A DNA stretch of 61,252 bases, from NCBI GenBank assembly GCA_032718475.1, contig JAUCBJ010007574.1, positions 1 through 61,252 on the forward strand. Direction: 5' to 3'. This document shows, in pieces, positions 32,645 to 61,252 of this stretch (positions are counted from its first letter, which is position 1; the number at the start of each line of letters is the position of its first letter). Source of the DNA: Nemertoderma westbladi (Eukaryota; Animalia; Xenacoelomorpha). The notes under the pieces are model-generated. The model had not been told where the DNA came from. It saw nothing but the letters and a program-made list of their open reading frames with translations, and ran no database searches. A program made the translations under genes and the position numbers.

Positions 32645-33045
32645 TGTACAAAATATTATTTCATTGTGTATTTTGTTATATAAGAAAGCGTTTGTTTTTG
32701 AATCTCGCTCTTCTTTTAAGTTATTTTTAGTATGACGTAAGTAATTATCCGATTACAGTCATTCTGATATGAAGTGGGTACCGGTTTATGTTATTATTAT
32801 TCTTTTAACTTGCTTATGACTACGTTGATTTCTGCTGTGTATGTCTGCCATGGTGTCAGTAAATAGGCCTAAACATGTATGTATGCTATACCCTTAATTG
32901 AATAAATGAATCAGGAAGTATCTTTACTTAAACCCTTATTATAAATCGCTCTCCCAAATGCTATCAAACACATACGCGGTAACAACAAACCATCGCGTTT
33001 ATTTTAAGTCTGGAAATCGCAACTACCCTATGTTATTTCGGGACA
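32645..33045 (+). repeat. 3' LTR (401 bp)
   Basis: Near-identical to 26412-26828. Confidence 0.97.
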
Positions 33046-40190: not shown

Positions 40191-41176
40191 TTATATATGT
40201 TACCGGTATTTATGTTACTGGGTATATATGTTAATAATGTATATGTTACTAATATATATGTTACTGGTATATATGTTACCGGTATTTATGTTACTGGGTA
40301 TATATGTTACTGGGTATATATGTTACTGGGTATTTATGTTACTGGGTATTTATGTTACCGGTATTTATGTTACTGGGTATATATGTTACTGGGTATATAT
40401 GTTACTGGTATATATGTTACTAATATATATGTTACTGGTATATATGTTACTAATATATATGTTACTGGTATATATGTTACTAATATATATGTTACTGGTA
40501 TATATGTTACTAATATATATGTTACTGGTATATATGTTACTGGGTATATATGTTACTGGGTATATATGTTAATAATATATATGTTACTGGTATATATGTT
40601 ACCGGTATTTATGTTACTGGGTATATATGTTAATAATGTATATGTTACTAATATATATGTTACCGGTATTTATGTTACTGGGTATATATGTTAATAATGT
40701 ATATGTTACTAATATATATGTTACTGGTATATATGTTACTGGGTATATATGTTAATAATGTATATGTTACTAATATATATGTTACCGGTATTTATGTTAC
40801 TGGGTATATATGTTACTGGGTATATATGTTAATAATATATATGTTACTGGTATATATGTTACCGGTATTTATGTTACTGGGTATATATGTTAATAATGTA
40901 TATGTTACTAATATATATGTTACTGGTATATATGTTACTGGGTATATATGTTAATAATGTATATGTTACTAATATATATGTTACTGGTATATATGTTACT
41001 GGGTATATATGTTAATAATGTATATGTTACTAATATATATGTTACTGGTATATATGTTACTGGTATATATGTTACTGGTATATATGTTACTGGTATATAT
41101 GTTACTAATGTATATGTTACTAATATAAATGTTACTGGTATATATGTTACCGGTATTTATGTTACCGGTATATATG
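40191..41176. repeat. 15-16-bp AT-rich minisatellite with higher-order structure
   Basis: Units TATATATGTTACTGG(G), TATATATGTTACTAA and TATTTATGTTACCGG. Confidence 0.95.
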
Positions 41177-43242
41177 TCACTCACTGGTTTACTGTATATG
41201 GTTATATGATATTGGTTATATGTTATTGGTTAATAAGCGATTATTGGAGCTGGTTAATATTTTACAATAATTTTATATTTCAAATTGAAACATCTTGTCT
41301 AGATTGACTTAACTTTATGTTAAACAAATTTCGACCACACCAACGCCAACCACACCTCATATATTTTCAAAAGATAATGTATTTATATAATTTCCACAAA
41401 AAACAATTATATTTAGTTTACTAATCCAACTAATCCAATACCGAATAACGTAAAGTTGGTATGAAGGGCTGTTTTTTTGCTGAAAATCATTATGAATTAT
41501 TATCTAAAATTGGCGCATTCAACTGTTAGTTATAGACCTTTATTTTGGTAATCTTGATTCTAAGACACTCAGACTGCACTATTGGATGGGTATTTTGATA
41601 ATATCATTGCCAATTTTTGGTTAAATTTAAAACGGTTTTCCGATTCGGAATCTACAGACGAAAGCGGTTCTAATGATATCTAGATTACATTTCAAAGACG
41701 TAAAATAAAGTCTACGGAGGTGGTTAAACATTGCTAAATATACATTTTTAAGGACTTGTTGTATAGAAATACAGTACGTAACTGAGAAATATAAAAATCC
41801 GCCCAGGCCACCAGTAAGAAAAGGTGTCGATCTATCATCATACCAAATTTCCTAGCATTTTATTTAAATTTGAAACAAATTAGGGGGCGGGGGTGGGGGG
41901 GGGGGGGGGGGGGCTCCGAACATGGTTGTTGTATTAAGGGAGATGGTGTAGTCTTATACTGTATCAGGTCGTCATTTATATTGATCATAATATCATTCTT
42001 ATTTACGTTTTGAATCATTCAAGATTGAACACTCTCTTACCACTAAACAAATTGAAATCGATTACATTGAATTTCGATTATTCATAATTATTATTAAACA
42101 TTTTCACGATACCACCGATTAGAATAGGGTTAGTGCGCGATATCTGTAGCAGCCAATCATCACGGCCGATTTTCAAAATTGGCTTACTTAAACCCGCCAT
42201 TTCGACCGTTTCCTTGAGTTTTTTTTACAAAAAACATACCCGACACCCGATTCAGGGCACCTTGTAACTAACTAGTTTCTAGCCACCATTTTTTGCACAC
42301 ATACCCTATTATTAATACAGTAGTTAGGCCTCTATTATTAATACAGTAGTTAGGCCTATTATATTATGAAAATAATTAAATAAAGTTAAATTTAGACCAT
42401 TAATTAATTATTAATATTGATTCAGTAAATTATTGATCCTAACAATTAAATTAAGTATTAATTAAATTAGCAACGACACAGCAGCAAAATACTAACGTGT
42501 GGGAAATATAGGCCTACATAGGCCGCTAAACGTAAACGAAAATGCAAAATGTGCACAGTAAGTAAGTAGTGTGCTCGATGCCCTGTGGTTTCATACTGAC
42601 AATTAATTGTTAGATATTAATTACATTATGTTTATTTAATTAATATGATATATTATATATCAGGTCATTTAATTAGCACAACATTCATATTTGCGTTTAG
42701 AATTCAATTATACAAGATTGACACCAAACAAATTGAAATAGTAATTTTGGTTTATTTAATTTATTTTTAAAATTTGACTGGTCAGGAGGATGGAAATGAT
42801 TATAAATCTCCACCCACCCGCCGAAGTCACTAAAATTTTATTTAAATTTTTGAAAACTACTGAAAGTAAATATCTAAAATAATAAACTCAGAGTAATTAA
42901 ATGAAATTCTAAACTAGAATTTCAGGAATTCGCTGAAATAAAATTGGTGTGATTTCATTAACTCATTAATTACACGGACTTTGTCTGAGACAGATAGGTC
43001 GTCCGTTATATTGGACCTGTCAATCATATTCAATATCGATACACTGTTATCCTACTTGTGTGTTATCTTCATGTTGATCCATTATGCTTGTGTTAGTATT
43101 ACCTACCATTGTCCTACAGATATATGCATGCAGTCCTATTACATACAATACACTACAGTAAGTAGGTCTGGTGCAGTTCATGCGGTATCATAACATAACG
43201 CAGTTTATTATTATCCGTTTTCATGAAACAACTAATAGTTAT

Positions 43243-43460
43243 TATGGTGGGCCTGAGCGGTCAGTTTTGTAATCTTTTCTTTTGTTTCCCCTACTTCGGC
43301 AAACTCGTTCGAACGACTTTACAAAACTCAGGAAAACAAAAGTTTGTTATTTGTAATCTTATTTTATTTACCCGAGTTTTGTAAAGTCGTTCGAACGAGT
43401 TTGCAAAAGTAGGGGAAACAAAAGAAGATATTACAAAACTGGCCACTCTGAACCACTATA
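43243..43460. mobile_element. Hairpin MITE
   Basis: TTTGTTTCCCCTACTT..CAAACTCGTTCGAACGACTTTACAAAACTC vs GAGTTTTGTAAAGTCGTTCGAACGAGTTTG..AAGTAGGGGAAACAAA. Confidence 0.85.
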
Positions 43461-44310
43461 GTTTTGTGTAATTGTAAATATTTCATTGTTATACGGTATT
43501 GTTTTTTATCGCCTATTGTATATGATAGACAACGGAATGTTCTTTCGCGTATCTATATTATATTGGTGAGTTCTAGATGGGTTTACTAGCTATAGTATTC
43601 TGGTTCATAGTGCACTGGGTGAATTAGTTTATTATTTTCTAGGCCACAACTCAAGATAAAATTACCGACATTATTCATGAACCTATTTATTTATGAGCTT
43701 TTCATAAGCCTGTTGACTTGTTGTCTGTTTTTGGAGTATACAGTATGTACAGTATAAACCTTATCACTGAATGATATAATGATTTTGTAGCCATTTTATT
43801 CTTGAGTTATCGCACTTCCCGTGAACTTTCTAATACTACTAGTACCGCAACCCTAACGGAACTGTTTGTATAAAAGTCTGTAGGTTTAATTATTTTCAGA
43901 TATCAATTATTATAAGTATCGATCGACCACTGCACTTGAGGGACAGAGCGACCTACTGTAGTTGTGTTATTACTTTCCCATTGGGTCGCGCACTATTACA
44001 CACTATTTTGCCACACTACTATATCATTCTGTCTCTATTTGTATGAAGTATAACTAAAATTCTGGAATTGTAGTGTTGTCCAGTTTCAGTTTACAGCTAC
44101 CAATATCTAGCGTCTGTCGTTTCGTATCGAGATAAATATCTTTTACATATCGTAAGTGCTCCCACAAAGACTGTGGGTAAGGGAGGCAACCATACTTTAT
44201 AACCAGATCTATTCAATTTGTCGTACAAATTTGTGTTTAGCTACCGAACTTTAACCATTGATATATTGCTAATTTGTTAGTCAATGAATTAATGCCGTGG
44301 CACGGCAATA

Positions 44311-44540
44311 AATAGTGCAGAATAGGATAAAAGTACCTACAGGTTATATTTAATATAACTGCCAAGAAAAACATGGTTGAAAAAATAGAAATTCAATTAA
44401 TTCAAACAATTGAGTTATACTAGGCCTACTGTAATCTGGATACCATATGTTTCTATTCTTGGCAGAGTTATGTTAAATTTTACCTGTAGGTGCTTACCGG
44501 ACCGGTAGGCCTACTGCTTATATCCTATTCTGTACTATTG
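44311..44540. mobile_element. Degenerate hairpin MITE
   Basis: AATAGTGCAGAATAGGATA...ACCTACAGGT...CTGCCAAGA vs TCTTGGCAG...ACCTGTAGGT...TATCCTATTCTGTACTATT. Confidence 0.7.
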
Positions 44541-45320
44541 CCTAACTGTATTCAGTAGGTCATCCTGATCGCGAATAATATTTTTGAAACGCGTTGTGTT
44601 TTAGTCGGTTTAAGGTTTTATTATCTATTAATTATTGTTGGTACTACAAAAATAATACTTAATAATCCGCAAAAGTATAGTAAATACTTTTTCGTATCGA
44701 CTATATACTGTATTTCACTCCAGTATTAATTTATCACCAGACAGTAATTCCAATACTAATTTGGACAAGGGAGGGCACAGAAATCAACATTATTCTTGAA
44801 TTTTGTAAACTACACAGACATTGCATTAATATTTTTGCGGTCAATTATATTCCAGAAAATTTTCTGACGTTAATCAAGTGACTAACTATAATTTTTTTTA
44901 AAGAAACAGCGATCTACCTGTATTATAAAGACGATCTAGAATATTTTATTATCTATGAAAAATAAATAAAATAAGTCCGTCTATATGGCCCCCTAACACG
45001 GAGCAACTTGTTTCTGTAACTTGTTGCTGGACTCCTCACACGTGGGAATCTTGTTGCTGCTAACTTGTTTCCGAAACTTGTTTTTGCAACTTTGTAGCTG
45101 GCCGGAGTGTAACTTGAACGAAGAGGTGGACAGTTGAACAGTCGTCTGAAGCTAGAGAGCTCCTTTCGCGGTGCGCAAGCACCGCCAGCTAGTTAATAGA
45201 TGGCCTTCCGTTAGCTGTTGAACTCGGCCTAATAATTTGCGATTTGATGTTGTGGTTGTAGTTTGGTAGGTAGTGGAGTGAGACCCGATCTCCACAGAGC
45301 AGACAAGCACAGTAGTAGGG

Positions 45321-45627
45321 TCTTGGTCCTCTCTGCGACAGTTAGACCACACTGACACCCATTGGGTGTCATATGACACCCAATTATCACCCTATGGGTG
45401 TCATTGGGTGTCATTGGCGCCAGACTGTCTGGGTGACACCTCCCAATTAGGCTAATTAGACCCTAATTGACAGGTGTCATCAATTAATTAGTACAATTAA
45501 ACCCTAACAGGTGTCATATGACTCCTAATTAGGGTTTAATTGATTATCCTAATTAATCAGACTGATTAGCGCCCTGACACACAATGGGTCATCAGTGTTG
45601 TCTAACTGTCGCAGAGAGGAGCAAGAG
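45321..45627. mobile_element. MITE with TIRs
   Basis: TCTTGGTCCTCTCTGCGACAGTTAGAC...GTCTAACTGTCGCAGAGAGGAGCAAGA; internal GGGTGTCA/TGACACCC sub-repeats. Confidence 0.8.
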
Positions 45628-46394
45628 GGTGTCATAAGTGACACCGCAGCTCTTTTATTTATTAATACTTATTTATTTGTACCTAATTTTAATTAATTAT
45701 TTGTATTCTATTTTACTTTATTTATTCATTTGTACTTTATTTTAAATTAATTAATTATTTGTATTCTATTTTACTTTATTTATTCATTTGTACTTTATTT
45801 TAAATTAATTAATTGTATTACTTTTACTTTATACATTGATTTCTATTTTTAGATTAAGTAGTTTTTATATTACCAATGAGATCACTATGACATAATGTCT
45901 ATATTTATCTTTATAATGGCTATGGTATACGGCTCCCTACTGGCAACTATCAACTACGTTCATCGGCGGGGGACCCTCCTCGCCGTCGCTATTCATTAAC
46001 TAGATACAACAGGCAGTGAATCTATACGTATACCCCCCAGGCAAATATAAATCAGCGATCCCGGCTGTTAGCAGCCCCCCTCGATGACTCACTAATAATC
46101 CCAATGCGGCCTTGACTATACCAAATCGTATATCGCCCAAGGCTAATGCTCTAGCGGCCCTCCTTTGTTCTCACTATGGCATCACTTGGGTCCTTTACTA
46201 TATCCAGGCAGCCCATATCATAACAATGAAGCGTCTCTAAACACGCAATCCTCTCTACTAATCCCATTCCTATGCACCAGACCTGCTTCTGTTATACAGT
46301 CAACTCAACATAATTAGTCAAGATGCCTACAGGAGTTTTCTAATAGATTCATCAACACGAGAAGTTGCCCTGGTTACCGCTTATGCATGAACAT

Positions 46395-46516
46395 CCAATC
46401 AGCGGGCTTCATTTCTACTGCTGCGTTCTGATTGGCTCATTTAAGAGACAAGGGCCTCCCTTAATAACCGAATTGCTATTTAATACGTCCCCACCAATAT
46501 ATTAGGTCATCATTTC
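46395..46516 (+). promoter_or_regulatory. Putative Pol II promoter of the pPolB unit
   Basis: CCAAT (46395), inverted ATTGG (46431), TATTTAATA (46477) and an Inr-like TCATTTC (46510) at roughly canonical spacing. Confidence 0.4.
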
Positions 46517-46635
46517 AATTGCAAGTTACGATTAACATCATTTACCATTATTTTGTTTTCGAATTTAATATTATTTATTTAAGAATATTTATTTGTTATC
46601 GTCAGTCAACTATCCAGTTGTATAGTTGTATTATT

Positions 46636-47445
46636 GTCATTTCGCCGCGTTATCGCTCATCGTCGACAACAAACTTTCCGTGTATCCGTCGCGTAATATT
46701 CTTCCGATACCATTCCGTTCTATCGCTGTATCGGTAAATAAATTCTCTCGTCGTCCACGTCAACCAACTTCCTCATCGCCAACAAACTTCCAAACTTCTT
46801 CTTTCCGTGAATATTTACTAACACCGTAAGTAAAATCTGCCTTCCACCATCTGACGGTACTATCGATGCCGCTAGCAAACAATTTACATTTATTATCTAC
46901 CGGTACAACAGTATTGCAGTAAGCTCACTATTAATTACTATCAGACTGCGGTGATACCGATAGCCTAAACCGTGATCGAAGCACTCGATCAATAGGCCTA
47001 CATCTGTTTATCTGCTTACAGTATTTTTTATCTTTTTACAAATAATCAACTTATTTTTCTAGTGTAATTTCACCGCGTTAACGCTCATTGTCAACATCGA
47101 ACTTTCCGCTTAGCCGTCGCGTAATATTCCAATATTTCTAATTTCCGATACCATTCCGTTCTATCGGTTAATAAACTCTCTCGTCGTCCACGTCAACCAA
47201 CTTCCTCACGAGCTTCCAAACTTCATCTTTCCGTGAATATTTACTAACACCGTAAGTAAAATCTGCCTTCCACCATCTGACTGTACTATCGATGCCAGTA
47301 GCAAACAATTTACATTTATTATCTACCGGTACAACAGTATTGCAGTAGACTCATTATTAATTACTGTCAGACTGCGGTGGTACCGATAGCCTAAACCGTG
47401 ATCGAAGCACTCGATCAATAGGCCTACATCTGTCTATCTGCTTGT
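46636..47445 (+). repeat. Tandem duplication (period about 426 bp) of an exon-intron-like leader unit
   Basis: Two copies with donor-like CC|GTAAGT at 46826 and 47252; the acceptor block CAGTATTTTTTATCTTTTTACAAATAATCAAC.TATTTTTCTAG ends at 47062 and recurs ending at 47963. Confidence 0.85.
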
Positions 47446-47970
47446 CTACCCAACTACCGCTACCGGATCATTCGAGTAAGCCTACTGCTACTATAGTAGC
47501 GATATAGACCCTACTGAACAACAATGAATACTGCAGTTTTCACTATATAACATACTGACTAACTGAGTTCTCACACAGCGATTAGCTAGGCCTATTGTTG
47601 ATTTGTATTGGTTAACGCTACCGGTACGTCTGACTTCTAGCAGACTTTTCACTAGCACTATTGCACTGACTGACTGTTGACTGCTGTTTATAGACCCTCT
47701 TTCCACGAATAATAACTGCCATCGCTATTATGTCTTGGTTATCGCCACTATCTAACCGCTGGTACACTAACACTACCACACTAGACACTACCGACCGTCT
47801 GCTTTATGTTTCACTGACTGATTGTTACAATACAGCAATAGGCCTAACTGTACAAACACAGTATTGTTGCCTAGTAACCAATTAATATCTACTGTTTTAC
47901 TTTATTTTTAGCAAGTATACAGTATTTTTTATCTTTTTACAAATAATCAACGTATTTTTCTAGATTCAAG

Positions 47971-50900
47971 ATGCCTATGTCTAGCAATAAAGTTAGCTTC
48001 CCCATCTGCGACAAAGAGATGCGGAGCGATACTTTATCCCGCCATATTAAAATTCATTTCGCGCAATATCGATGCGACTGCTGTCCGACTTGGTCCTCGG
48101 AAAAGAAGACGCTGGTTGGCCATCTTGTTTCGTGTCCTCAGGGGGGAACAGGATTTAGTTACGTAAACGAGCCAGCCGATTGCCACTGCGGGGATTCGCT
48201 CACCCTATCTTCCTTCACTGAGCATGAATGCTACACTCGACTTTTTTCGCGGAAACGCAAAACTCCGACTACCTCCCACTCATCCCCCATCAACTCTACT
48301 CCAGAACAAGTCGGCGGCGGCGACTCCAATAACGAACCTTCAACTTCGCGAGATTCTATTTCCCCAAACAATCCATTTCAACCACCCTCTAACGGAAGCG
48401 CACACGGACGACTGTTTACCTATAACAACGACCTCGCAGAAACAAGACTCGACGCTGAATTAACATTAAACGAAAATTTTCCACACATTCAAGAACACGT
48501 TAGTAGCCATCTACAAAGTGCTTTGGGAACTTTTTTAAGAGTCTGGCTTACAATCAATATCGTAATGGAGCGTGAAACCAGCGAGGATTTTCAAATTGAA
48601 TCATTCTGTTTTAAATCTAGCGGTAACAATAATCAAATTCTAAGTAATAGCGACTTTAATAACTGGTTTTCTAGCGCCGTCAATCGTATCGATCAGCTGT
48701 TAAGCGTGTTTCTCTGCCTCGGCTCGGGTTGGCGCATAATAGCCATCGAGCGAATAACTATTGAGATTGCGCGGTCCCAACGCAACCCCTATTTAAAGGG
48801 TCAAGGCTTCAATAATTCTAAATTATTATTAAATAAAAAATGTTCCGTAAGCGTAGACTGCCCGCTGGGGGAATGCTTTAAATACGCAGTATTGGCCGCC
48901 GCAAATTATAAGAAAATTGATAGAAAAAATAATAATATTAGTAGAATTTCAACGTATACTCCTTTCCTAAACATGTTTGATTTTTCCAATTTAAGTTTCC
49001 CGGTGGACAGAGTAACTGGTATTCCCCAGTTTCTGAAAGCCAACCCTATATACTGTATAAACCTTCTTTATTGGAGTAATATGGAAGAACTCTCCATTCT
49101 AAGTCAACCAGATAGCGCGCACTGTTCCGGTAAAACTGTACTAAACTTATTATTTATCGAAGCCACAAGCAAAAACCCCGCCCACTACGTAGCTATTACT
49201 AACATAAATAGACTAATAAATTCAAAAGATTCTAACGGTAACAAGACGCACTGCGAACGATGTCTCAGAGGCTTTTACACTGACAAATCATTGGAAGAAC
49301 ATCGAGAGCGGTGCTATACGGGTAAACGCCAACTCGAGTATATGCCCGAAAATCTCTTGGTTAAATTTGACAGATACGATAAGACTCTATCCCCTCCTTT
49401 CTGTATATACGCCGACATTGAAACTATTCTAGAACCTACAAACAATATTAAACTCCCACAGAAACATATAGCTAGCGCGGCAGCCTTTTATACAGTACCA
49501 AATCAGAAATTCATTAACCCTCCTAAAACAGATGTTCAAATTTTCCGTGATGATGGCAGTAACCACGTAATGCGCGACTTTCTAACCGCTATGGAAAGTC
49601 ATTGTAGGGAGTTATACGATTGGTCCATTTCTAGCACAAACACGCACGCCCCCATGCAACTCATTACTAGCCAACAAACCGACTTTAATAACGCTACACA
49701 ATGCTACGTTTGCAACTGTAATTTAACCCCCGATTCTCATAATTTAAACCTCAATGACAATCTCAGCACCAAAGTCCGCGATCATGATCATTATAGCGGG
49801 GAGTATCGAGGGGCTGCTTGCGTCAGCTGCAACAGGAAACTTTCCCTAAAACGGAATAATTTTTATATTATATTTCATAACTTGAGGAAATTCGATATGC
49901 ATTTACTACTAAAAGAAGGAATGACCGATAGTTCTAGAACACACTGGAAAATGACTGTAATACCAAAAAACACTGAAACTTATATTCACCTTAAAGTTAG
50001 CTTTCCAATCGATCCGAGTACACCAACAGCCAACGCTAAAGAAAGTATCTCCATTAATTTTCTAGATTCCTATCAATTTATGACTGCCAGCCTAGATAAT
50101 CTTAGTAGTTATCTCACTAAAAAGAATAGTAACCTAGCAACAGCCATACCCCATACACTAGCTCAAATGACCCAACTCTATCCCAACATTAGCGATAACA
50201 CAATAAAAAACAAGGGCGTATTCCCATATTCCTACATTCAAAATATTTCAAACCTACACGAAACTACACTCCCCCCAATAGAAAGCTTCTATAATGATCT
50301 CAAATTGGATCAATGTAGCGCAGACAACTATCAGCGCGCGCTTACTACTTGGGATGAATTAAACTGCGCAACAATCTTCGACTATATGATTGGCTATTTG
50401 GTTCTAGACGTTACCCTATTGGCTGATACTTTCGAGCAGTTCCGATCCCTCCTCTGTCTTACTAATTATGGACTCGAGCCCGTAATGTACTTCACTGCCC
50501 CAGGATTAACTTACGACGCGGCGCTGAAATTTACGCAATCAGAAATTCAATTACTATCAGACGCTTCCATCTACTCGGACTTTGAAACAAATATTAGGGG
50601 TGGTCTAGTTTTCTTGAATACACATTCCGTAGACGCAAATATTCCCGATAAACCCGACTACGACTCCAGTCTCCCCAAGAAATATCTAATTCCCATCGAT
50701 GCGAATAACCTTTACGGCTGCGCCCTGAGCCAGAAACTTCCCTACGCTAATATTAAACTCGTAACTACCCCCATAGACCTAGCTACAGTAGACGCGAGTG
50801 GGGACACTGGTTATTATTGCATAGTTGATCTACATTACCCGAAAGAAATTCATGATTTGACCGCCGATCTGCCTCTAGGAGCGGAGAAGATGTCAGTCCC

Positions 50901-52026
50901 TAAATCCTTTCTTAGCGAATACATGGAAGATCTTTGGGAGCATTACAATCTCACCGATACGGCTACCTGTAGACCATACAACGATACCTGTACTAAGCTA
51001 CTACTACATCAGTTTAATAAGGTTGAATACGGTATCCATATTAAGCTACTTCAGCTCTATTTGAAGCTCGGTCTTAAACTTACACAAGTACATAGGGTCT
51101 ACTCTTTCTCACAAAAATATATTTTCAAGGACTACATTAGTTTTAATACGAATAAAAGACAGTCGGCAAATAACCCATTCGAGGTTCTATTTTATAAGTT
51201 GATGAACAATGCCTTGTATGGGAAATGCCTCCAAAAGGTTAGAGACCGCGTTTCGTTCAGGTTATGCAATAGCGACGAACAATGCGATTTGCTCTTAGCC
51301 AAGCCCAATCATGAATCGTTTGTTGTCTTTACCCCCAACTTGAGTGGTCATACTTTCACTAAAGAGGCTGTTTGCCTAAATCAGGGCGTGTTCATCGGTT
51401 GCACTATACTAGATCTATCTAAGCTACAGATGTACGACCTATTTTACAACAAACTGAAGCCTCTAGAACAAAAACTGGATTGTCAGATTCGCTGTCTAGC
51501 CGGTGACACGGATTCTCTAATGCTAAGCGTAACTAATGCACCACAGCTAACCTTTCTACGGGCAATGTTTGAGGGTGGTTTCCTAGATACTTCCAACTAC
51601 AGTACAACACATCCACTCTATACCATTAAACACAAAGCGGCTCTCGGCTTCGTAAAAGATGAGAGCTGCGGTCTGCAGTATAAACAGTGGGTTTTCCTTA
51701 AACCAAAGGTCTATAGTTTTCAATCCTATGATGCCCCAATCAAGAAAACCGCCAAAGGTGTATCTAGATCTGTTGTCGCTAAGCAACTAACACATGAGGA
51801 TTATGCAGACTGTTTTGAAAACGAGGCAATGCTCTTCCGCTATAACTCTACCTTCACTTCTAGAAAGCATCAAATTTTTACTGGTCATGTCTATAAGAAG
51901 GCACTAACGCTCTGGGATACGAAATCATATTGGAGTAGTAAATATAGCAGCAAACCATACGGGCACTATAGCACTAAGCTTGTTAGACCGGCGAAACGAG
52001 TAGTAATCCCCCCTACTAGGATTTAA
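47971..52026 (+). CDS. polB: Protein-primed DNA polymerase B (Polinton/adintovirus-type pPolB) with N-terminal Zn fingers and an embedded endonuclease-VII-like motif
   Basis: Uninterrupted 1351 aa; ExoI YADIE, ExoII FHNLRKFD, FLDSYQF, KGVFPY, ExoIII YLVLDV, IRGG, motif A DANNLYG, motif B KLMNNALYGK, motif C GDTDS, KVY, KGV; CYVC...RDHDHYSGEYRGAACVSCN. Confidence 0.95.
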   Translation: MPMSSNKVSFPICDKEMRSDTLSRHIKIHFAQYRCDCCPTWSSEKKTLVGHLVSCPQGGTGFSYVNEPADCHCGDSLTLSSFTEHECYTRLFSRKRKTPTTSHSSPINSTPEQVGGGDSNNEPSTSRDSISPNNPFQPPSNGSAHGRLFTYNNDLAETRLDAELTLNENFPHIQEHVSSHLQSALGTFLRVWLTINIVMERETSEDFQIESFCFKSSGNNNQILSNSDFNNWFSSAVNRIDQLLSVFLCLGSGWRIIAIERITIEIARSQRNPYLKGQGFNNSKLLLNKKCSVSVDCPLGECFKYAVLAAANYKKIDRKNNNISRISTYTPFLNMFDFSNLSFPVDRVTGIPQFLKANPIYCINLLYWSNMEELSILSQPDSAHCSGKTVLNLLFIEATSKNPAHYVAITNINRLINSKDSNGNKTHCERCLRGFYTDKSLEEHRERCYTGKRQLEYMPENLLVKFDRYDKTLSPPFCIYADIETILEPTNNIKLPQKHIASAAAFYTVPNQKFINPPKTDVQIFRDDGSNHVMRDFLTAMESHCRELYDWSISSTNTHAPMQLITSQQTDFNNATQCYVCNCNLTPDSHNLNLNDNLSTKVRDHDHYSGEYRGAACVSCNRKLSLKRNNFYIIFHNLRKFDMHLLLKEGMTDSSRTHWKMTVIPKNTETYIHLKVSFPIDPSTPTANAKESISINFLDSYQFMTASLDNLSSYLTKKNSNLATAIPHTLAQMTQLYPNISDNTIKNKGVFPYSYIQNISNLHETTLPPIESFYNDLKLDQCSADNYQRALTTWDELNCATIFDYMIGYLVLDVTLLADTFEQFRSLLCLTNYGLEPVMYFTAPGLTYDAALKFTQSEIQLLSDASIYSDFETNIRGGLVFLNTHSVDANIPDKPDYDSSLPKKYLIPIDANNLYGCALSQKLPYANIKLVTTPIDLATVDASGDTGYYCIVDLHYPKEIHDLTADLPLGAEKMSVPKSFLSEYMEDLWEHYNLTDTATCRPYNDTCTKLLLHQFNKVEYGIHIKLLQLYLKLGLKLTQVHRVYSFSQKYIFKDYISFNTNKRQSANNPFEVLFYKLMNNALYGKCLQKVRDRVSFRLCNSDEQCDLLLAKPNHESFVVFTPNLSGHTFTKEAVCLNQGVFIGCTILDLSKLQMYDLFYNKLKPLEQKLDCQIRCLAGDTDSLMLSVTNAPQLTFLRAMFEGGFLDTSNYSTTHPLYTIKHKAALGFVKDESCGLQYKQWVFLKPKVYSFQSYDAPIKKTAKGVSRSVVAKQLTHEDYADCFENEAMLFRYNSTFTSRKHQIFTGHVYKKALTLWDTKSYWSSKYSSKPYGHYSTKLVRPAKRVVIPPTRI

Positions 52027-52040
52027 ATTTATTTTTCTAG

Positions 52041-52556
52041 AATAAGAAATTGAACAACAAAATAGAAATAACCAATAAACAGTTTACCGGAAAAAACATT
52101 GCCAAATTTGAACTAGAGAAAATTTCACAGCAAATTACAGGTCAAAGTTGCTTAAAACCAAACATGTTTATCTACAAAGGTGACGATTCAACTTTAATGC
52201 TATTTCCCAGCGGCGCAGTAACAATTGTAGGCCTATGCAATAATTTAGCTAGTGAATTGCTTTATTTAAAACAAACTATTGGTATGCAAGTGCAAAATTT
52301 GAAACTTAATACCGAAACACGAACTATTATTTTTCCAAGTGTTAATTTTAAATTATTAATGAAAAAATGTGGACATCATACAATTAATAATAAAGCAATA
52401 TTTATTAGCTATACCCCCGAATTATTTTGCGCGATTAGAATATATATAGGACGTGCATATTTCAGTGTATTTCATAGTAATAAAATCGTTTCCATGTGTC
52501 CTGCCGGTGAATTCCCCGGATCATTATCTATTTTACAAACTTTATTATTAAATTAG
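52041..52556 (+). CDS. Divergent TATA-binding protein (TBP)-fold protein
   Basis: About 170 aa with two TBP-like repeats: ITNKQFT..KFELEKI...TLMLFPSGAVTIVG (cf. LQNIVST..LDLKTI...TALIFSSGKMVCTG) and SYTPELFCAIRI...FSVFHSNKIV (cf. SYEPELFPGLIYR...LLIFVSGKVV); no N-terminal ATG; preceded by acceptor-like tttttctAG (52039-52040). Confidence 0.8.
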   Translation, partial: NKKLNNKIEITNKQFTGKNIAKFELEKISQQITGQSCLKPNMFIYKGDDSTLMLFPSGAVTIVGLCNNLASELLYLKQTIGMQVQNLKLNTETRTIIFPSVNFKLLMKKCGHHTINNKAIFISYTPELFCAIRIYIGRAYFSVFHSNKIVSMCPAGEFPGSLSILQTLLLN

Positions 52557-54856
52557 TTTATTTACTATGGTATACATGAAAGTTTACTATATTATTTATT
52601 TTGTGTTGGTTTTTATTTCTCCATGAGTGGGGTTTGAATCCGTGACCATCCGTGTTACCTACTTTTTATAATTGCATTAGTAGGACTCGAACCCTGGTTT
52701 AACTTATTTTGTGTTGGTTTTATAATGGTCGCGAGTAGGGCTTGAACCCGTGACCAGCTGTTTTTCCTATTTTGTGTTTACTTTTTATAATTCCCATAAA
52801 ACGGGATATGAATAGGGATCGAACCCGTGACCATATGTTTTTCCTATTTTATGTTTAGTTTAGTCTAGTTATTCTATGTTTACTTTTTATATTTTCATGA
52901 CTAGGATTCGAACCCTGGTTTAACTTATTTTGTGTTGGATTTATAATGGTCGCGAGTAGGGAATGAACCTATGACCTCCTGTTTATTTTCCATAAAACGG
53001 GATACGAATAGGGATTGAACCTGTGACCATATGTTTATCCTATTTTGTGTTTAGTTTAGGTACTCTAGTTATTCTATGTTTACTTTTTATATTTTCATGA
53101 TTAGGATTCTAACCCTGGTTTAACTTATTTTGTGTTGGATTTATAATGGTCGTGAGTAGGGATTGAACCCATGACCATCTGTTTATCCTATTTTGTGTTT
53201 ACTTTTTATATTTTTCCATAAAACAGGATACGAGAAGGGGTCGAACATGTGACCACCTGTTTATCCTATTTTATGTTTAGTTTAGTTACTCTAGTTATTC
53301 TATGTTTACTTTTTATATTTTTTATAAAACGGACACGAGTAGGGATTGAACCCGTGACCATATGTTTTCCTAATTTATGTTTAGTTTAGTCTAGTTATTC
53401 TATGTTTACTTTTATATTTTCATCTCTAGGATTCGAACCCTGGTTTAACTTATTTTATGTTGGTTTTTTAATGGTCGCGAGTAGGGATTGAACCTATGAC
53501 CTCCTGTTTATTTTCCATTGGTTGTTTTATATTTAATATGTCACGCTCATCTCTCTTTTTCTTTTCATCTTCACTAAAAATATCTTCGGATTTTTTAAAT
53601 TTTTTGGTAACGGAGCCATTAGTTTTCCTTTCTATGTGTTTCCATATGACGAGATAAATTGTCTTGTCTCATTTCTTTATTACAAACCAAACAACTTTTA
53701 TGTCTATGCATTATAAAGCAATGTCAATTGATAATATTGAATTTTCACATTATATTTATGTTAAATTATAAATTTATGCTACAATTATTATTTATATTAT
53801 AAAAAACAGAAATATTCGAGTTATATTGCATATTGTGGAATACTTTAGATGTTGGGGGGAATCTGGTTTGCGAGGGATATTTGAATGGTGAGTATAACTA
53901 TCCTTGAGAGCTAGTGCAACGCTATCTCACTATGGATGGGCTTTACCATTGTACTCGCATCTGCTCTCTCATTGGCTGCTCGATGCCTCCGATTAAGGGT
54001 CTAAGACCTTCAAGCTGACCTTTTGCTTAGTTTTCTAATTAGAAGGTCGTGAGTTTGCACCCTAGAAGAGCATTATTCTTTTTCCTAGCTCTCGGCTAAC
54101 TCTAGTACACTCTAGCTTTGACTTTCCCGGCTATAGTGATAGTATGCAACCTTGGGAGTTAATGTGAGTACATATTTCAGTGTATTTCATAGTAATAAAA
54201 TCGTTTCCATGTGTCCTACCGGTGAATTCCCCGGATCATTATCTATTTTACAAACTGTATTATTAAATTAGTTTATTTACTATGGTATGCATGAAAGTTT
54301 ACTATATTATTAATTTTGTGTTGGTTTTTATTTTTCCGTGAGTAGGGTTTGAATCCGTGACCATCTGTTTATCCTATTTTGTGTTTAGTTTAGTTACTCT
54401 ATGTTAAAGTGAATTTTCACATTATATTTATGTTAAATTATAAATTTATGCTACAATTATTATTTATATTATAAAAACAGAAATATTCGAGTTATATTGC
54501 ATTATATATTTTACATTGAAGAGGAATACTTTAGATGTGGGGGGGAATCTGGTTTGCGAGGGATATTTGAATGGTGAGTATAACTATCCTTGAGAGCTAG
54601 TGCAACGCTATCTCACTATGGATGGGCTTTACCATTGTACTCGCATCTGCTCTCTCATTGGCTGCTCGATGGCTCCGATTAAGGGTCTAAGACCTTCAAG
54701 CTGATTATTTGCTTAGTTTTCTAATTGGAGGGATGTGAGTTTGCACCCTAGAAGAGCTTTATTCTTTTTCCTAGCTCTCGGCTAACTCTAGTACACTCTA
54801 GCTTTGACTTTCCCGGAGATAGTGATAGTATGCAACCTTGGGAGTTAATGTGAGTA
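52456..54856 (+). repeat. Tandem duplication: 52456-54170 repeated as 54171-54856, with most of the B-box array missing from copy 2
   Basis: CATATTTCAGTGTATTTCATAG (TBP-like 3' end) recurs at 54171; block about 53739-54170 recurs at about 54410-54856; both copies end GGAGTTAATGTGAGTA. Confidence 0.9.
52625..53502 (-). repeat. Array of about 13 tRNA T-arm/B-box motifs in T-rich spacers (higher-order tandem repeat)
   Basis: Plus strand GAGTAGGGATTGAACCCGTGACC and TAGGATTCGAACCCTGG read on the minus strand as GGTCACGGGTTCAATCCCTACTC and CCAGGGTTCGAATCCTA (B-box GGTTCRANNCC); motifs near 52625, 52678, 52733, 52810, 52899, 52954, 53006, 53099, 53154, 53232, 53337, 53425, 53479. Confidence 0.8.
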
Positions 54857-57158
54857 AAGACCAAGAGATTAAACTTCAGGCTCTGGGTTGGTGTAGTGGC
54901 GTAAATATCACGTAATGATGAGTTCCCCACTGAACCGCCCAAATCAGGTAACCCGCCCGTCCGGTGGAAAGGAAACTGATAACTAAACGCTCCAGTGTGG
55001 TGTCTGTGCAGGCCGATCCCTACACAGCACCATAGTAATACAGAATATAGACAGAATATAAACAGATAACAAACAATAAATCAGATGCATTTACAAAAGA
55101 TAAAATAATATAAGTGAATACGTAAAATGAATAAGGAATCTGTACTACTAAAGAACTGTGCCATAAAACAACGATATCACCTTCCACTCTTGTCACCAAA
55201 CCAACTGAACCAATATTGCTAATCTGTGTCTAATGTACCCCGGTAGCGCGGATGAATATTCCCTAGTAATGAGCCAGACTGGGGTTTAAGACCCCAGCCT
55301 GGCACCCGTACGTAGCAAAAACCCTAATTAAGTACATAATCCTACTACCTAAAACTAAAACCTACTGAAACCCCCCCAATATAACAATAAATACGTACTA
55401 CATAATGTAGTACATATTGACCGCCTAATTGTACATTCCTATCTCTGGCAAGGCTAATATCCCATCTCCCTGCTACCTCTGTCTTGCTACAGGTGTGGCC
55501 TGGCGGCCAACCTGTCCCCAATCACGTGCTCTTTGTATACCTCGTTTGTAATCCACCTAGTCCCATGTCTGTATTGATACCTTGAGAGTTGACTTGGTGG
55601 AAGGCGTACGTAGTAACCTAATACTAACATTCCTGGAAATCACTGCAGCCCAGTCCCCCCCCCCCCCCCCCCGTGTGCCCTGTAACTAGTCAGTTCCGTA
55701 GTCCTACCTACACCTACAGTACAAACGCTACAGTAATTACCCCTACAGTACAAACATTAGGCTTGGGTGGGAAACCCGTGGTACTCGTATAATATATGTG
55801 TGGGTTTGGGAAGGGTAAGGTTCCGGTTGTCGGACACACTCCCCCTTGGGAGTGTAAATGATTTACACTCCCATATCTAAAGGCACGAGCCAGTAGACAC
55901 CCTGTGAACGTCAGGAAAGGTAGGCGACTCCTAAACAATCCGTCGGTTGTCGGTAAAAAAAAATTGTGGTAAAAAATGGATAAAAATAATGGTGGGTACT
56001 GTTGACCCGGAGTATGGTTTTAAAAACGGGAGTTGATAGTCCCTTTACCAATTCGCTGTGAGTCAGCACACTAGACGAGTTTCCGCTGACCCCACAGACG
56101 ATTGACATCAACACCCATCTGGGTGTTGATATCGTGAAACGGTTTAAGCCCCGTAACGCGCTGTTCAGTGCCATCCACTGTCGGATATAGGCAATGGTAT
56201 CACACCATAAAGGATTCATGATACGAAATAATGTAAATAAATTAATTAAAAAACACATTTTGTTCGTTGTGCCACGCACACACACTCATTCACTCGTATG
56301 TACTTTGGGTGACCCCTGCACCACTTATTGGTGATGGGCACACCCATGGACACCACATCGCTACGCTCTCTGACGTTTTTTACGATCCTTTGGGCACCCA
56401 TTTAAATATTTATAATCTCTCCGAACGCGCTATCGGTTACTTTCTCCAGGTCCGGCTCTATGGCACGGCGAGCCCCCAAATGTGGGATCGACCCCCTGCA
56501 TCCTGGCCAACCCAGGGTGCTACCCATCCGCCCAGCTGCGCTCCAACCAGCTACTCTGTGTCATTCGTTAACTTCCAACTTACATTCTCATTCCTGTCTC
56601 AATCACTGCACACGGTGCTATCTCATTCCAAACAACCTCAAATTGTTGTGGCCGTCCGTATCGGGCCACCCCCAATGTGCGCACGTACCTGTGATAAGGT
56701 AGGTGGGCCCCATTGGTGGTACCTACTTGTTCGGTACCGTCAGTTGTGAATGGGAGCGTCCACAGCGACGAACCCCACTCGTGGGTGGCGTCTTCTGCTT
56801 CACCCACTGCTGTGTGACTGTTATACGTAACTTTCATACACACGTACGTACACACATACACTCTAAATACTAAGTTAACCAAATCACACCACTCTGTAAA
56901 CTGTGTTGAACTATCCACCCGTAATAACGCATACACACTCGCACACCCCCCCCCCCCCCCCCCCCCCCCCTTTGAGCTCCCCGAAACAGCCAATGGTGGA
57001 TACTTATAGACGGTTTACTCCATAAACATTGTAATCATTCAGTGGTGCGTACCTACATGGATCAAATGGAACAAAAAAATGCAAGTATTGCATCGGGCAT
57101 TGCAAGGTGTGGCTTGTAAATATGTACAGCGTGACGTATAGTCTCGGTTCTCTCGTGA

Positions 57159-57352
57159 GGTGCAGTCAAATAACTCTCGTAAAATACAGTTAAATCTCCC
57201 GTAAGGTGCAGTCAAATAACTCTCGTAAAAATGCAGTTAAATCTCCCGTAAGGTGCAGTCAAATAACTCTCGTAAAATGCAGTTAAATCTCCCGTAAGGT
57301 GCAGTCAAATAACTCTCGTAAAATGCAGTTAAATCTCCCGTAAGGTGCAGTC
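57159..57352. repeat. 46-bp tandem repeat (about 4.2 copies, dimeric sub-units of about 23 bp) abutting the stop codon of the CCHC ORF
   Basis: Unit GGTGCAGTCAAATAACTCTCGTAAAATGCAGTTAAATCTCCCGTAA starting at 57159, 57205, 57252, 57298 and 57344. Confidence 0.95.
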
Positions 57353-59308
57353 CTACTTGATTCGCCGTCTTTTACGGTCATTGATATCCTCCTCCTTCTG
57401 GTCCTCCACCTCCCTGTGGTATTTTACCACGTGTTCGAGGTAGTAGGTCCCGGTGTAGTGGTCCAGGAACCCTTCGAGGTGTCCCGGGTGTCCCGGCCGC
57501 CACTCGTCTAGTCTGTCCTGTATCCTCTGCACGCCTATTGTCATGGCGACGTGCAGGATATGGGTGTATTGCACGGTTTCCTCGCGCCTCGATATCGCGA
57601 GCACGAAATCCGGCTTCATGCGGAAGAAACCCATGGCAATCCCCCGCCTGAGGAGGCGACGCCTGGTCTCCACCCCCATGTTGGCGTTGCACTCGAATCG
57701 CTCTAAGTGCCCCCTCGGCTCCCTCTGGTCACAGTCGCTGTTCCGGTGTCCCCGGAAGCCGCACCGTCCGCACAGTCGGTGCAGTACCTGGCAGGCCGCC
57801 AGGAAGTGTCCCCGTTCGCCGCAGTACGAGCACGGATCCCCGAGAAGTTTGTCCGGGGGGCCGAACGTACACCTGTCCTGGATATGACTCAGGGCTCCGC
57901 AGGTATAACAGGCCGGTAGCTGAAATTCGTACCCAGCATTGTCCTGTATCGGTCTACGTTTCACGTAGTAAACGTGTTTCCTCTCCCTCACCACGTTTGC
58001 TGCGCCCTGATCCTTCGTAAGTCCGTCCGCCTGTAACGGCGGTTCTTGTATGGTAGGTTCTTCCCGGCGATCCACCTGTCTCCTGACTGCAGACCGCGTC
58101 TCCCTTTGTGCCGGTCTCCATATTGGTTCCAGGGGCGGCATTTCTCCCCCAAAGTTATCGCGTTCCTCCTGCCCGCTGTCATTTTCGGCGTTGGCACTCG
58201 TTCGTCCTGTGTATGGGCGACGTAGTTCCCCCGGCCGACGCCCCAGCATCCTCGACGGTCCCTCCGTTGGGCGACGCCCCCCGCGACCCTGGGCGAGGAG
58301 CCCCCGAGTGCTACGGACGGGTGAGTTCCTTCGGTCTATCGTCTCTCCGGAGTACACAACCCAGTCCCGTGTTCTCCCGTCTACGACCATCCTCTCCACC
58401 GCCTGGTCAAACGGTCTCCTCTGGTCCCGTATATGTCCCGCCACCGAAGCCGTCCCGCGGGAGATCCTTCTACGGCTCTTCCCCAAAGACCCGCGGTTGC
58501 CACGGCTCCCGGTAGCCGCTCCGTTTCGGAAGTGGGTGGCGCCCGAGGTCAGTTGGCGTCCTCGTTCCTCTTGGAACCCCCACTCCTCCTCGAACTGTGG
58601 CTGGGGTTTGTCCCCGCCCTCACGTCCATCCCAGACTTTGGAGCTGGTAGATGGCTGTGCTCGGTCGTCCTGTCCTCTTCGGCAGACTCTTTTCGGCTCG
58701 TATCGGTAATCCCAGTCGTCGTAAGCCGCCATCTTGGCTGCCGGGATTTGGCCGCTACCTTCGTCGTCGCTATGGGTCTCGACGTCCGGAGCTGGTTGTA
58801 GGGAGTAGCCTCCCTCGTAGGTACTGTCGGGTCCCTTTCCCGTCTGTGGATTTGTCTCCTCCCGTGGTACCTTACTCTCCCCTAGGCGGCGAATTCTGTC
58901 GATTTGCCGGGGAGACGGTGTGGTTTCTTTATCCATCAGGTAGTTCGCGTTATAAATGACCTCGGTCCGGTTCTGATCCCTTGGGAAGTCCACAAGGGGC
59001 CACAATACCCTACGGATAGCCTCTCGGTCCGAGAGGATCCTGCCTCCACTATCGCGGAAGGCTCGGGGAACCAGGCCCACCATGTGGGCTGTCAATAGGA
59101 GGGGGATTGACGCCGCTGCGTAATCCTCCTGTAGGATGTATTGTTCTTGAACCGCGTCTAGTCGTCGGTTCCTCGATGGGAAGGTATACAGTCGTGGGGG
59201 CCATCTGGGCCTCGCCTTAAACTGTTCCGTTGTCAGTCGTGTGGCCCCTGCCTGTCGGTCGTACTTCTCTCTGGACATGGGTTTGAAGTTGACCAGCCCG
59301 GTCTCTCT
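57353..59308 (-). CDS. GC-rich Gag-like/nucleic-acid-binding ORF with three CCHC zinc knuckles (retroelement-derived), C-terminal part of a chimeric ORF
   Basis: CYTCGALSHIQDRC, CSYCGERGHFLAAC, CGRCGFRGHRNSDC; long R/G/E-rich low-complexity region upstream. Confidence 0.65.
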   Translation of the reverse strand, partial: RETGLVNFKPMSREKYDRQAGATRLTTEQFKARPRWPPRLYTFPSRNRRLDAVQEQYILQEDYAAASIPLLLTAHMVGLVPRAFRDSGGRILSDREAIRRVLWPLVDFPRDQNRTEVIYNANYLMDKETTPSPRQIDRIRRLGESKVPREETNPQTGKGPDSTYEGGYSLQPAPDVETHSDDEGSGQIPAAKMAAYDDWDYRYEPKRVCRRGQDDRAQPSTSSKVWDGREGGDKPQPQFEEEWGFQEERGRQLTSGATHFRNGAATGSRGNRGSLGKSRRRISRGTASVAGHIRDQRRPFDQAVERMVVDGRTRDWVVYSGETIDRRNSPVRSTRGLLAQGRGGRRPTEGPSRMLGRRPGELRRPYTGRTSANAENDSGQEERDNFGGEMPPLEPIWRPAQRETRSAVRRQVDRREEPTIQEPPLQADGLTKDQGAANVVRERKHVYYVKRRPIQDNAGYEFQLPACYTCGALSHIQDRCTFGPPDKLLGDPCSYCGERGHFLAACQVLHRLCGRCGFRGHRNSDCDQREPRGHLERFECNANMGVETRRRLLRRGIAMGFFRMKPDFVLAISRREETVQYTHILHVAMTIGVQRIQDRLDEWRPGHPGHLEGFLDHYTGTYYLEHVVKYHREVEDQKEEDINDRKRRRIK

Positions 59309-60300
59309 GGCAAATGAGAAGTGGCAACGGATGATGCGGTTAGAGATTTGGTCTATTTTGTCCAATGCTGCATGTGCAGTTGGATTCATCAATAGACCAA
59401 TTCCACCATTGCCACTATCATCTGCTGAAGCGAGGGTGAGTCGCCAACTGCCCCCCATGTCCTTAATCAGAACCTCATCAGTCTGTCCAGTCTGCATTCG
59501 ATGCTCTTGAACACGCACTGCACTAAGAGAAAGCTTATCTGCCAAGGCAGTCAGCTCACCTTGTCGCATTGGGGACCCGAGTGTTAGGGTGTTTACTGAG
59601 GCTAGTCTAGTGACTTGCCTCAGATTCACCAATGGCTTTGTTGGTCGGGGTGGAACATGAAAGTAGCCTCCAACTCCAGAATCCCTCTCCCCCTCGCAAT
59701 CTGGCCTCCCTGGTGACCCAGGGTTTGGGCCAGAAAGGTGATCAGGAAAGGCACTCAAAGAATTGTTTGCCGCTCTCTCTCCAGTAGGGGGTGAGACAGG
59801 CAGCCGGTCAGGAGATAACTGACGCCTGTGGGGCCGATTGTGTCCAGTTATTCCACTGGCCTCTAGTGGCTGGACCTCCGCATTACTAATGTAATCCATA
59901 GTGGGGGTTGGGGGGTGCTTTTTTGCCGAGTCAGCTCTCGGGGCAAATACCACACCCTGGTTTGCCATTCCACAGGGTGGGTGTCGCAGTGGAGTCAGAT
60001 ATGAAGCCCATCACCCATATCTACTCTGGCGCACATGACCCACCATTGGCTGTGCAGCTCATCTGCTGGGTCATGCCCTGTACCCCTGTTGCCAGGTGTA
60101 GGTCGCAGTGAAGTGCACTCAGAGTGGACATGAGAACACTCTACTCCTGACCAGCCATTGGTAGATCACCATCTGCCTGGCCAGGCCATATAACCCTGCA
60201 GCCAAGTATATGGGTCCTTAATCCAGGACCAAGGGCGTCCTTATCCCAGAACGAAGGGGGTCCTAGTTACAGGACCAGATTTTCCCTCTACAGGTGGCAC
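59309..60300 (-). mobile_element. 5' portion of an RTE-like non-LTR retrotransposon (probable 5' UTR plus truncated APE endonuclease)
   Basis: RLASVNTLTL...LSAVRVQEHR...SWRLTLASADDSGNGGIGLLM...ISNRII matches the N-terminal APE motifs (NxxT, QE, GVG); homology stops near 59309. Confidence 0.75.
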
Positions 60301-60365
60301 CTCCTTTATGCTACATGGAGGTGGCAAGTTTTCTTGATCAATGACCTAGAATACCTGACCTGACC

Positions 60366-61182
60366 TACAAGGGATGTATTCAGAAACGAGACCACAAGGG
60401 ATGTATCCAGAAACGAGACCACAAGGGATGTACCAAGAAACGAGACCACAAGGGATGTATCCAGAAACGAGACCACAAGGGATGTATCCAGAAACGAGAC
60501 CACAAGGGATGTATCTAGAAACGCGACCACAAGGGATGTACCCAGAAACGAGACCACAAGGGATGTACCCAGAAACGAGACCACAAGGGATGTATCCAGA
60601 AACGAGACCACAAGGGATGTATCCAAAAACGAGACTACAATGGATGTATCGAGAAACGAGACCGCAAGGGATGTATCCAGAAACGAGATCACAAGGGATG
60701 TATCCAGAAACGAGACCACAAGGGATGTATCCAGAAACGAGACTACAAGGGATGATTCCAGAAACGAGACCACAAGGGATGTATCCAGAAACGAGACCAC
60801 AAGGGATGTATCCAGAAACGAGACTACAAGGGATGTATCCAGAAACGAGACCACAAGGGATGTATCCAGAAACGAGACCACAAGGGATGTATCTAGAAAC
60901 GCGACCACAAGGGATGTACCCAGAAACGAGACCACAAGGGATGTATCCAGAAACGAGACCACAAGGGATGTATCCAAAAACGAGACTACATGGGATGTAT
61001 CGAGAAACGAGACCACAAGGGATGTATCCAGAAACGAGATCACAAGGGATGTACCACAAGGGATGTATCCAGAAACGAGACCACAAGGGATGTACCCAGA
61101 AACGAGACCACAAGGGATGTACCCAGAAACGAGACCACAAGGGATGTACCCAGAAACGAGACCACAAGGGATGTACCCAGAA
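60366..61182. repeat. 27-bp minisatellite, about 30 copies
   Basis: Unit ACCACAAGGGATGTATCCAGAAACGAG; explains the 9-aa-periodic ORFs on both strands. Confidence 0.97.
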
Positions 61183-61252
61183 AGTGTAGAGGTGTAGAGT
61201 AGATTTAATTTAACGTGGTTAGAGGATTCAATCTTACAAAAAATAAATAAAA

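Follow-up and report, generated by a model that had tools for sequence, protein, structure and literature searches.

We analysed a stretch of 61,252 nucleotides from Nemertoderma westbladi (contig JAUCBJ010007574.1 of assembly GCA_032718475.1; this whole stretch is called the window), in which positions 45311 to about 54860 are, with a probability that we put at about 0.78, the left 9.5 kb of a multi-copy element of the Polinton/adintovirus type, the right part of which has probably been deleted or displaced by other repeats. The element carries the gene of a protein-primed DNA polymerase (pPolB), followed by a gene for a protein of the TATA-binding protein (TBP) fold and by an array of B boxes. 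We read it as the left arm of a Polinton because its near relatives have both genes plus the integrase and capsid genes that are absent at this locus, and as a truncated one because the right terminus is absent and the element stops after an orphan promoter-like block. A preliminary description of the same DNA had proposed, for 46395-54856, a minimal self-replicating element without integrase and capsid genes. This proposal is not supported: the TBP-bearing relatives with long flanks have an rve integrase and a packaging ATPase (2/2) and in one case a capsid gene, and the window copy has one terminus and breaks off at the right, unlike the self-contained unit that had been supposed. Most likely the locus is an ordinary broken Polinton copy.

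The polymerase and TBP-like genes

47971-52026, plus strand: pPolB open reading frame (ORF), 1351 amino acids, no internal stop
52041-52556, plus strand: TBP-fold frame, 171 amino acids from stop to stop, 14 nt past the pPolB stop, acceptor-like site at 52040

The polymerase frame matches Pfam DNA_pol_B_2 (E=5.4e-17) and, just below the family cut-off, Endonuclease_7 (E=8.7e-5). It retains what we take to be the vOTU Cys/His residues and the Exo I-III, Pol A-C and KxY motifs, bearing out the uninterrupted pPolB with all catalytic motifs that had been seen before. At least 120 relatives, 27-38% identical, were among the matches listed, including uncharacterised proteins from corals, spiders, mites, abalone, a beetle and Macrostomum. 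A passage of PMC11161782 gives the layout of Polinton polymerases as TP-vOTU-EXO-PALM.

The TBP-like frame is too divergent a member of its family for most single-sequence methods: it scores 19.9 bits on Pfam TBP against a cut-off of 22.9, its folding from the single sequence failed (predicted local distance difference test, pLDDT, 33), and as a single query it gave one match in a representative library and none in a word-indexed search or among PDB sequences, while a language-model search returned TBP clusters in 30 of 30 matches, a recognition that we grade as weak. The TBP homologues that lie beside related polymerases score 46-66 bits on the same Pfam model, and from these polymerase-linked homologues 533 proteins were found, 120 of which were listed. 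A profile of 122 homologues, built without the window protein, recovers the frame with E=1.9e-17 as its only match among 1438 window frames. A structure model resting on an alignment of TBP-like proteins (pLDDT 91) superposes on human TBP over the whole saddle (template modelling score, TM, 0.77, E=1.8e-8; cellular structure PDB 4rod_B), and the viral TBPs of giant viruses in BFVD score below cellular TBP against it. As modelled, the protein is a complete two-repeat saddle of the TBP family, and the preliminary claim of a TBP-fold ORF 14 nt downstream on the same strand is upheld by profile and model alike.

The protein keeps F55, F129 and F144, which we take to be aromatic DNA-contact positions, and the YxPELF motif, presumably the stirrup. 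Position 40 is proline in the window protein and in 122/122 homologues. Mapped through the symmetry of the repeats, it would be the site of the first intercalating phenylalanine of cellular TBP; by this mapping three of the four intercalating phenylalanines are kept and one would be proline throughout the family. In 66 of the 122 homologues the protein starts five residues ahead of a conserved asparagine. The window frame, which has its first ATG at codon 42, has none there, so that the start would lie in a spliced exon, use a non-AUG codon, or have been lost in the window copy. At many columns that its family conserves, the window protein also has a different residue.

TBP as cargo in related Polinton loci

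Scans with the polymerase alignment supplied 85 pPolB loci: five viral loci from IMG/VR and, from about half of the metagenomic collection, the best 80 of 513 confirmed ones. Four of the 85 (L007, L025, L082 and L085) carry a TBP gene, with E<=1e-31, the next match standing at E=0.48; the five IMG/VR loci are ordinary Polinton-like elements without TBP. A pPolB phylogeny was built from 139 related polymerases (FastTree, midpoint-rooted; 14 of the 85 loci, with fewer than 560 aligned residues, and 53 of the 120 database proteins are left out), and within this scope it places the window enzyme in a Polinton clade with TBP: all four TBP loci and the window polymerase fall in one 26-row clade (SH-like support 100), in which the sister row of the window polymerase is a Macrostomum lignano protein (support 92). 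The clade contains 15 loci, five of them with at least 1.5 kb downstream, and four of these five have TBP. Outside the clade TBP occurs in 0/70 loci, most of which are short, 16 having at least 5 kb of flank.

The two long TBP loci, L025 and L085, both encode an rve-chromo integrase above the Pfam cut-off and a packaging-type ATPase. A protein of L025 has 30% identity with the ORF in the capsid position of L004, an element bounded by terminal inverted repeats (TIRs), and falls among double-jelly-roll capsid clusters; further ORFs of L025 we read, without library support, as a protease and pentons, and PHROGs gave no names for virion genes. TBP is cargo in the polymerase clade of the window element, beside integrase, ATPase and capsid genes. 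The linkage of pPolB and TBP is real: it recurs both in other copies of the host and in the 4/85 related loci, and this element type therefore carries its own basal-factor homologue.

Scans of IMG/VR and GTDB genomes with the TBP alignment gave no locus; these scans were weak, because confirmation used the divergent window sequence. Among the homologues, proteins P0123-P0242 form a stand-alone TBP-like family, mostly of 150-200 amino acids, metagenomic and named TBP by their sources, and many of them may be Polinton genes. The TBP-bearing relative L085 also has KilA-N and phospholipase-A2-like genes (L085:11675-14128).

Read depth and dispersed copies

Contigs of four DNA runs (X1-X4) of one organism, from three studies, X2 and X3 being one sample, were aligned to 42500-56800. 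The flanks have contig depths of 5-6 (X1), 29 (X2) and 41-46 (X3); at 51673, within the polymerase gene, depth reaches 1975, 1489 and 13524, respectively, which is about 330-420, 50 and 290-330 times the flank. The TBP frame and the polymerase have equal depth, and over the array depth is likewise in the thousands. An X4 contig (52285-52716) bridges TBP and array, and a joint 48804->52034, found in two studies, reveals internally deleted copies in which the polymerase is joined to the TBP acceptor. The aligned contigs range from less than 90% to more than 99% alike, and since they cover all levels of divergence, several of them at single-copy depth, they point to many integrated copies.

A probable left end of a Polinton

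45305-45310: candidate target-site copy, six bases ahead of the end motif
45311..45320, plus strand: likely left terminus, AGTAGTAG end motif (AGTAGT end), placed by motif and contig junction
45321..45860, strand not assigned: subterminal region, nested palindrome 45321-45626 and AT-rich 29/58-nt repeats
53738..54170, plus strand: block B, a second putative promoter-like block with donor- and acceptor-like sites
54168..54380, plus strand: A', second copy of the 3' end of TBP and of the first array unit, 93.9% identical to 52453-52665
54410..54856, plus strand: B', duplicate of block B (93.5%), with a donor-like site at 54850 and no gene behind it

The AGTAGTAG motif at 45311 is the only plus-strand match from 42000 on. 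A 689-nt contig (X3 record 18), whose depth of 39.8 compares with the 41-46 of the flank, aligns to 45002-45311 and then departs from the window sequence. Because this single-copy-depth contig departs exactly at the first base of the end motif, we infer a left terminus at 45311 and read the contig as an empty-site allele. The subterminal region, which would be part of the left TIR, is deeper than the coding part and is tied to the interior of the element in other copies by an X3 joint (45652->47352). An independent miniature inverted-repeat element at 45321-45626 was considered for the palindrome and is disfavoured by the junction at 45311 and the joint to the element interior. An end at 45311 puts the boundary 1.1 kb further left than the start at 46395 given previously, and the absence of TIRs that had been noted holds in part: a Polinton-type end motif does exist, outside 46395-54856, and the matching right end is absent. 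According to passages of PMC8097293, AGTAGT-type ends are the commonest end motif of vertebrate Mavericks, and most vertebrate Mavericks are degraded and lack TIRs. Two repeats adjoin this subject: 45005-45310 is a high-depth repeat with internal palindromic units, a separate repeat that starts at about 45005 and into which the element was apparently inserted, and the clade locus L058 has nested palindromes with CCAAT repeats (L058:6491-6724) resembling the subterminal palindrome of the window.

To the right, the left 1.1 kb does not recur in inverted form in the window, there is no ACT end except within the polymerase gene, and the candidate target site is not found a second time. The element breaks off at 54856 or within the next 40 nt; past 54900 depth drops 4- to 10-fold in X1-X3, and depth shifts here are as expected where another repeat family begins. 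The region right of the element is a nest of repeat fragments. A long terminal repeat starting at about 54892 was considered from the sequence; its partner and target duplication were not found.

With references taken from related loci, neither the search of the 1438 window frames (best E 0.35) nor tblastn gave a match to integrase, ATPase, protease, penton or capsid genes, so that the usual companion genes are indeed missing, as first described. Set beside an intact Polinton, the locus has the vOTU, exonuclease and polymerase motifs of a protein-primed PolB, and belongs to a set of dispersed integrated copies, as indicated in three studies by depth steps and the spread of divergence (depth not being exact copy number); the rve integrase gene is absent from the window copy, as are the packaging ATPase, the protease and the major and minor capsid genes. 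Since a likely left end alone is present and the right end is absent from the window, we class the copy as a truncated derivative and not as an intact Polinton. The missing right part, probably lost by deletion or displaced by other repeats, is predicted to hold the integrase, the virion genes and the second terminus.

Insertion by integrase and priming by terminal protein are established for the Polinton family. Complete members would insert through the rve integrase, acting on AGT-ended TIRs, and would copy themselves by terminal-protein priming. The window copy, with a single end, would be unable to replicate or move on its own; it lacks the second origin as well as every gene for insertion or for virions, is best seen as a recent fossil and might still be transcribed.

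Leader, promoter-like block and B-box array

46395..46500, plus strand: promoter-like block (inverted CCAAT, AT-rich box), function predicted from sequence
46500..47963, plus strand: non-coding leader with tandem duplication 46632-47017 / 47060-47443, putatively spliced
46826 and 47252 (donors), 47062 and 47963 (acceptors), plus strand: splice-like sites by sequence pattern
52600..53560, minus strand: array of 13 tandem units of 52-105 nt, with a tRNA T-arm/B-box motif at the end of each and no A box

The repeats of the leader region are 86.7% and 97.8% identical by sequence comparison, and 46500-46825 contains no ATG, against nine CAT. An early promoter near 46430-46490 would drive this ATG-free leader, which would be spliced to acceptors just before each gene (47963 and 52040) and so give polymerase and TBP-like messages; the sites are assigned by position, because splice patterns have no strand bias here. 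The viral TBP of herpesviruses recruits host factors, and by analogy the TBP-like protein is predicted to do so at the promoters of the element. It would then be a viral promoter-recognition factor that brings host RNA polymerase to the genes of the element.

The roughly 13 B-box motifs reported downstream are real: 13 lie on the minus strand at 52630-53495, and one more in the duplicate at 54345. Seven of the nine perfect B-box matches of the whole window fall in the array, and at up to two mismatches there are 61 matches against 34.8 +/- 6.2 by chance (0/100 shuffles reach 61). In 11/13 units a TATAAA lies 29-69 nt upstream of the B box; the array contains 12 TATAAA against a shuffle mean of 2.5 (0/300 reach 12), with other A-rich hexamers equally frequent, and for both motifs the tandem copies are not independent. 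Four of the 13 units run on to CCA, and four units have TTTT behind them, the T-runs lying at 52801, 52997, 53223 and 53329. Folding of the units is mixed (z < -2 in 2/6). Searches of the array found no A box, no tRNA and no Rfam family of note; we rejected tRNA genes or a known RNA for it, as the A box, the cloverleaf and an Rfam match are lacking, the B box alone being present. Related loci have at most three scattered B-box matches each, and no array was found in the TBP-bearing relatives.

On a plain reading, the array is a captured tRNA or short interspersed element (SINE) fragment, amplified into a spacer that separates two transcription units, and it may bind host TFIIIC. The B box is a site for TFIIIC and not for TBP; this and the absence of the array in relatives count against the preliminary idea of a cis array matching the TBP; the TATAAA upstream in 11/13 units keeps that idea alive. 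In fission yeast, according to part of PMC7474672, B-box clusters occupied by TFIIIC in the absence of Pol III serve as boundaries, and by analogy a boundary role of the array is possible. A bolder scheme, which we hold to be improbable, is that of a capsid-less Polinton of hundreds of copies that has kept only polymerase and TBP, the array being a set of hybrid promoters at which its own TBP and host TFIIIC make short Pol III RNAs or shield the element from silencing; if true, it would amount to a transposon-encoded TFIIIB-like switch.

Alternative explanations

Several observations weigh against the left-arm reading and the TBP linkage on which it draws: (i) no complete family member from Nemertoderma westbladi is among the copies examined, and its integrase and capsid genes are deduced from relatives. 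(ii) These relatives are distant (polymerase 35-40% and TBP 20-27% identity) and differ in gene order; the clade locus L058 has no TBP across 1.7 kb downstream, and L085 has no capsid, penton or protease match in 19.0 of its 23.0 kb. (iii) The window TBP forms a very long tree branch, the placement of which is unsure. (iv) Past 54900 depth goes up, not down, in X4, and X2 and X3, from one sample, differ sixfold, contig depth not being copy number. (v) Splice-site patterns are equally common on the minus strand (17 donors and 10 acceptors, against 14 and 6). (vi) The late box TATAAG/TAAGA occurs in 1/20 and 3/20 upstream regions of TBP loci, at background values of 0.04 and 0.15, and in 2/44 and 11/44 of TBP-less loci, which lends no support in the loci examined. 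(vii) The 17 polymerase differences listed are spread 4/7/6 over codon positions 1/2/3; this speaks for the reading, as a young copy would drift in this way after insertion when no selection acts, but the count draws on 40 of 681 rows.

The strongest competitor, which we regard as unlikely, is that the host family is itself a reduced, capsid-less or non-autonomous Polinton that keeps polymerase, TBP and array, with a short right arm and an integrase acting in trans or lying further right. The window has no virion gene, depth is very high across the whole polymerase-TBP-array unit, the deleted derivatives (48804->52034) recur in two studies, and L085 has integrase, ATPase and TBP, yet no capsid match in 19 kb, all of which would suit such a family. 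However, the window copy lacks its right end in either case, more genes are suggested by the promoter-like block and donor site left dangling at 53738-54856, and the one nearly whole TBP relative seen has what we read as the full virion set. Far less probable is a self-contained linear replicon or endogenised minimal virus at 46395-54856, which would need no integrase and whose TBP would act on its own array. Its polymerase is intact, its TBP fold is there, 11/13 array units have TATAAA and depth is high enough for free copies, but the left boundary is at 45311 and not at 46395, the absence of a second terminus leaves no second origin for protein priming, as a linear plasmid would have, the spread of contig divergence and the contigs at single-copy depth point to many integrated copies, and the relatives have no array.

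A chance neighbourhood, in which a stray fragment of a polymerase happens to lie beside a retrocopy of the host TBP and an unrelated satellite derived from tRNA, would agree with the nest of repeat fragments to the right and with the resemblance of the array to a SINE fragment. It is already refuted in the main, and we give it the least credence of all: depth is continuous over polymerase, TBP and array, the X4 contig bridges the last two, the joint of polymerase to TBP acceptor was found in two studies, and the window protein shares the family-specific Pro40 and the short size of Polinton-linked TBPs. The truncated left arm of a Polinton is the reading that we keep. The preliminary description had itself named three findings that would undo its proposal. 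One, that the locus derives from an ordinary Polinton, largely applies, as judged from relatives and not from Nemertoderma westbladi itself; another, that the arrangement was already described, also largely applies, through a TBP label on a related virus in a figure legend of PMC8502044; the third, that TBP is never linked to pPolB elsewhere, does not, the linkage recurring in other copies and related loci.

Neighbouring features in the window

8078-16651, minus strand: host UDP-glucose:glycoprotein glucosyltransferase with a few long exons (Pfam Glyco_transf_24, UDP-g_GGTase, Thioredoxin_12/14/15)
21829-22419, plus strand: fragment of an integrase core (Pfam rva_4, E=9e-30) that lies 23 kb away from the element, dissimilar to Polinton integrase references
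26412-33045, plus strand: BEL/Pao retrotransposon with gag, protease, reverse transcriptase and integrase, terminal repeat pieces 100% identical, a stop near 31952; likely a recent insertion
36073-38217, plus strand: intronless 714-aa protein with a long coiled-coil repeat of 21-nt period and a C-terminal fibrinogen domain
40192-41181 (15 nt), 57149-57352 (46 nt) and 60362-61183 (27 nt): tandem arrays
57353-59968, minus strand: 871-aa open frame with a start that we read as endonuclease-like, a low-complexity middle and CCHC zinc knuckles; seemingly either a gag-like gene or a composite of repeat fragments

Relation to known systems

The element shares with Polintons/Mavericks of the alpha-adintovirus type, as these are presented in parts of PMC8502044 (Starrett et al. 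2021) and PMC8097293 (Barreat and Katzourakis 2021), a PF03175-type polymerase with vOTU, the AGT end motif, many integrated and partly decayed copies, and same-clade relatives with integrase, ATPase and capsid. It differs from them in that the window copy has no integrase, ATPase, protease, capsid or right TIR, and its candidate target-site copy has no partner; and whereas intact vertebrate Mavericks are described in those parts as intronless, the window element has a TBP-like gene and predicted spliced leaders. The protein resembles cellular TBP (PF00352; PDB 4rod_B) in the complete two-repeat saddle as modelled (TM 0.77), the three aromatic positions and the YxPELF stirrup, and differs from cellular and giant-virus TBPs by an identity of 16-19%, the proline at what would be the first intercalating position and the lack of an N-terminal extension. 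In fission yeast IR-L/IR-R, in the portion of PMC7474672 that treats them, several B boxes follow one another at a domain border with no tRNA genes among them, as B boxes do in the array; here, in contrast, the putative TFIIIC sites form 13 tandem units inside a mobile element, with TATAAA and, in four units, a T-run.

The legend of Figure 5 in PMC8502044 (Starrett 2021) labels as TBP a gene of a MELD virus with adintovirus-like PolB, which therefore carries a TBP homologue with such a polymerase, as the window element does. In the part of that paper concerned it is a mere label, in a section on non-animal datasets and without analysis in the text, whereas here TBP marks a polymerase clade and stands in an animal-like genome; one supplement of the paper gave no match for TBP or TATA. 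Our literature searches on Polintons with TBP, TFIIIC or viral TBP turned up this figure label and, among the papers listed, none devoted to the topic, passages of three further papers did not mention TBP, and a search on flatworm Polintons listed nothing relevant.

The locus thus adds to a Polinton polymerase clade equipped with a TBP-fold protein of its own and no RNA polymerase. The TATA/B-box array beside the TBP gene, which has no counterpart in the relatives, is a concrete candidate for a TFIIIC or TBP binding site. If the proposed role is true, TBP cargo would give a small nuclear DNA virus a means of redirecting host transcription.

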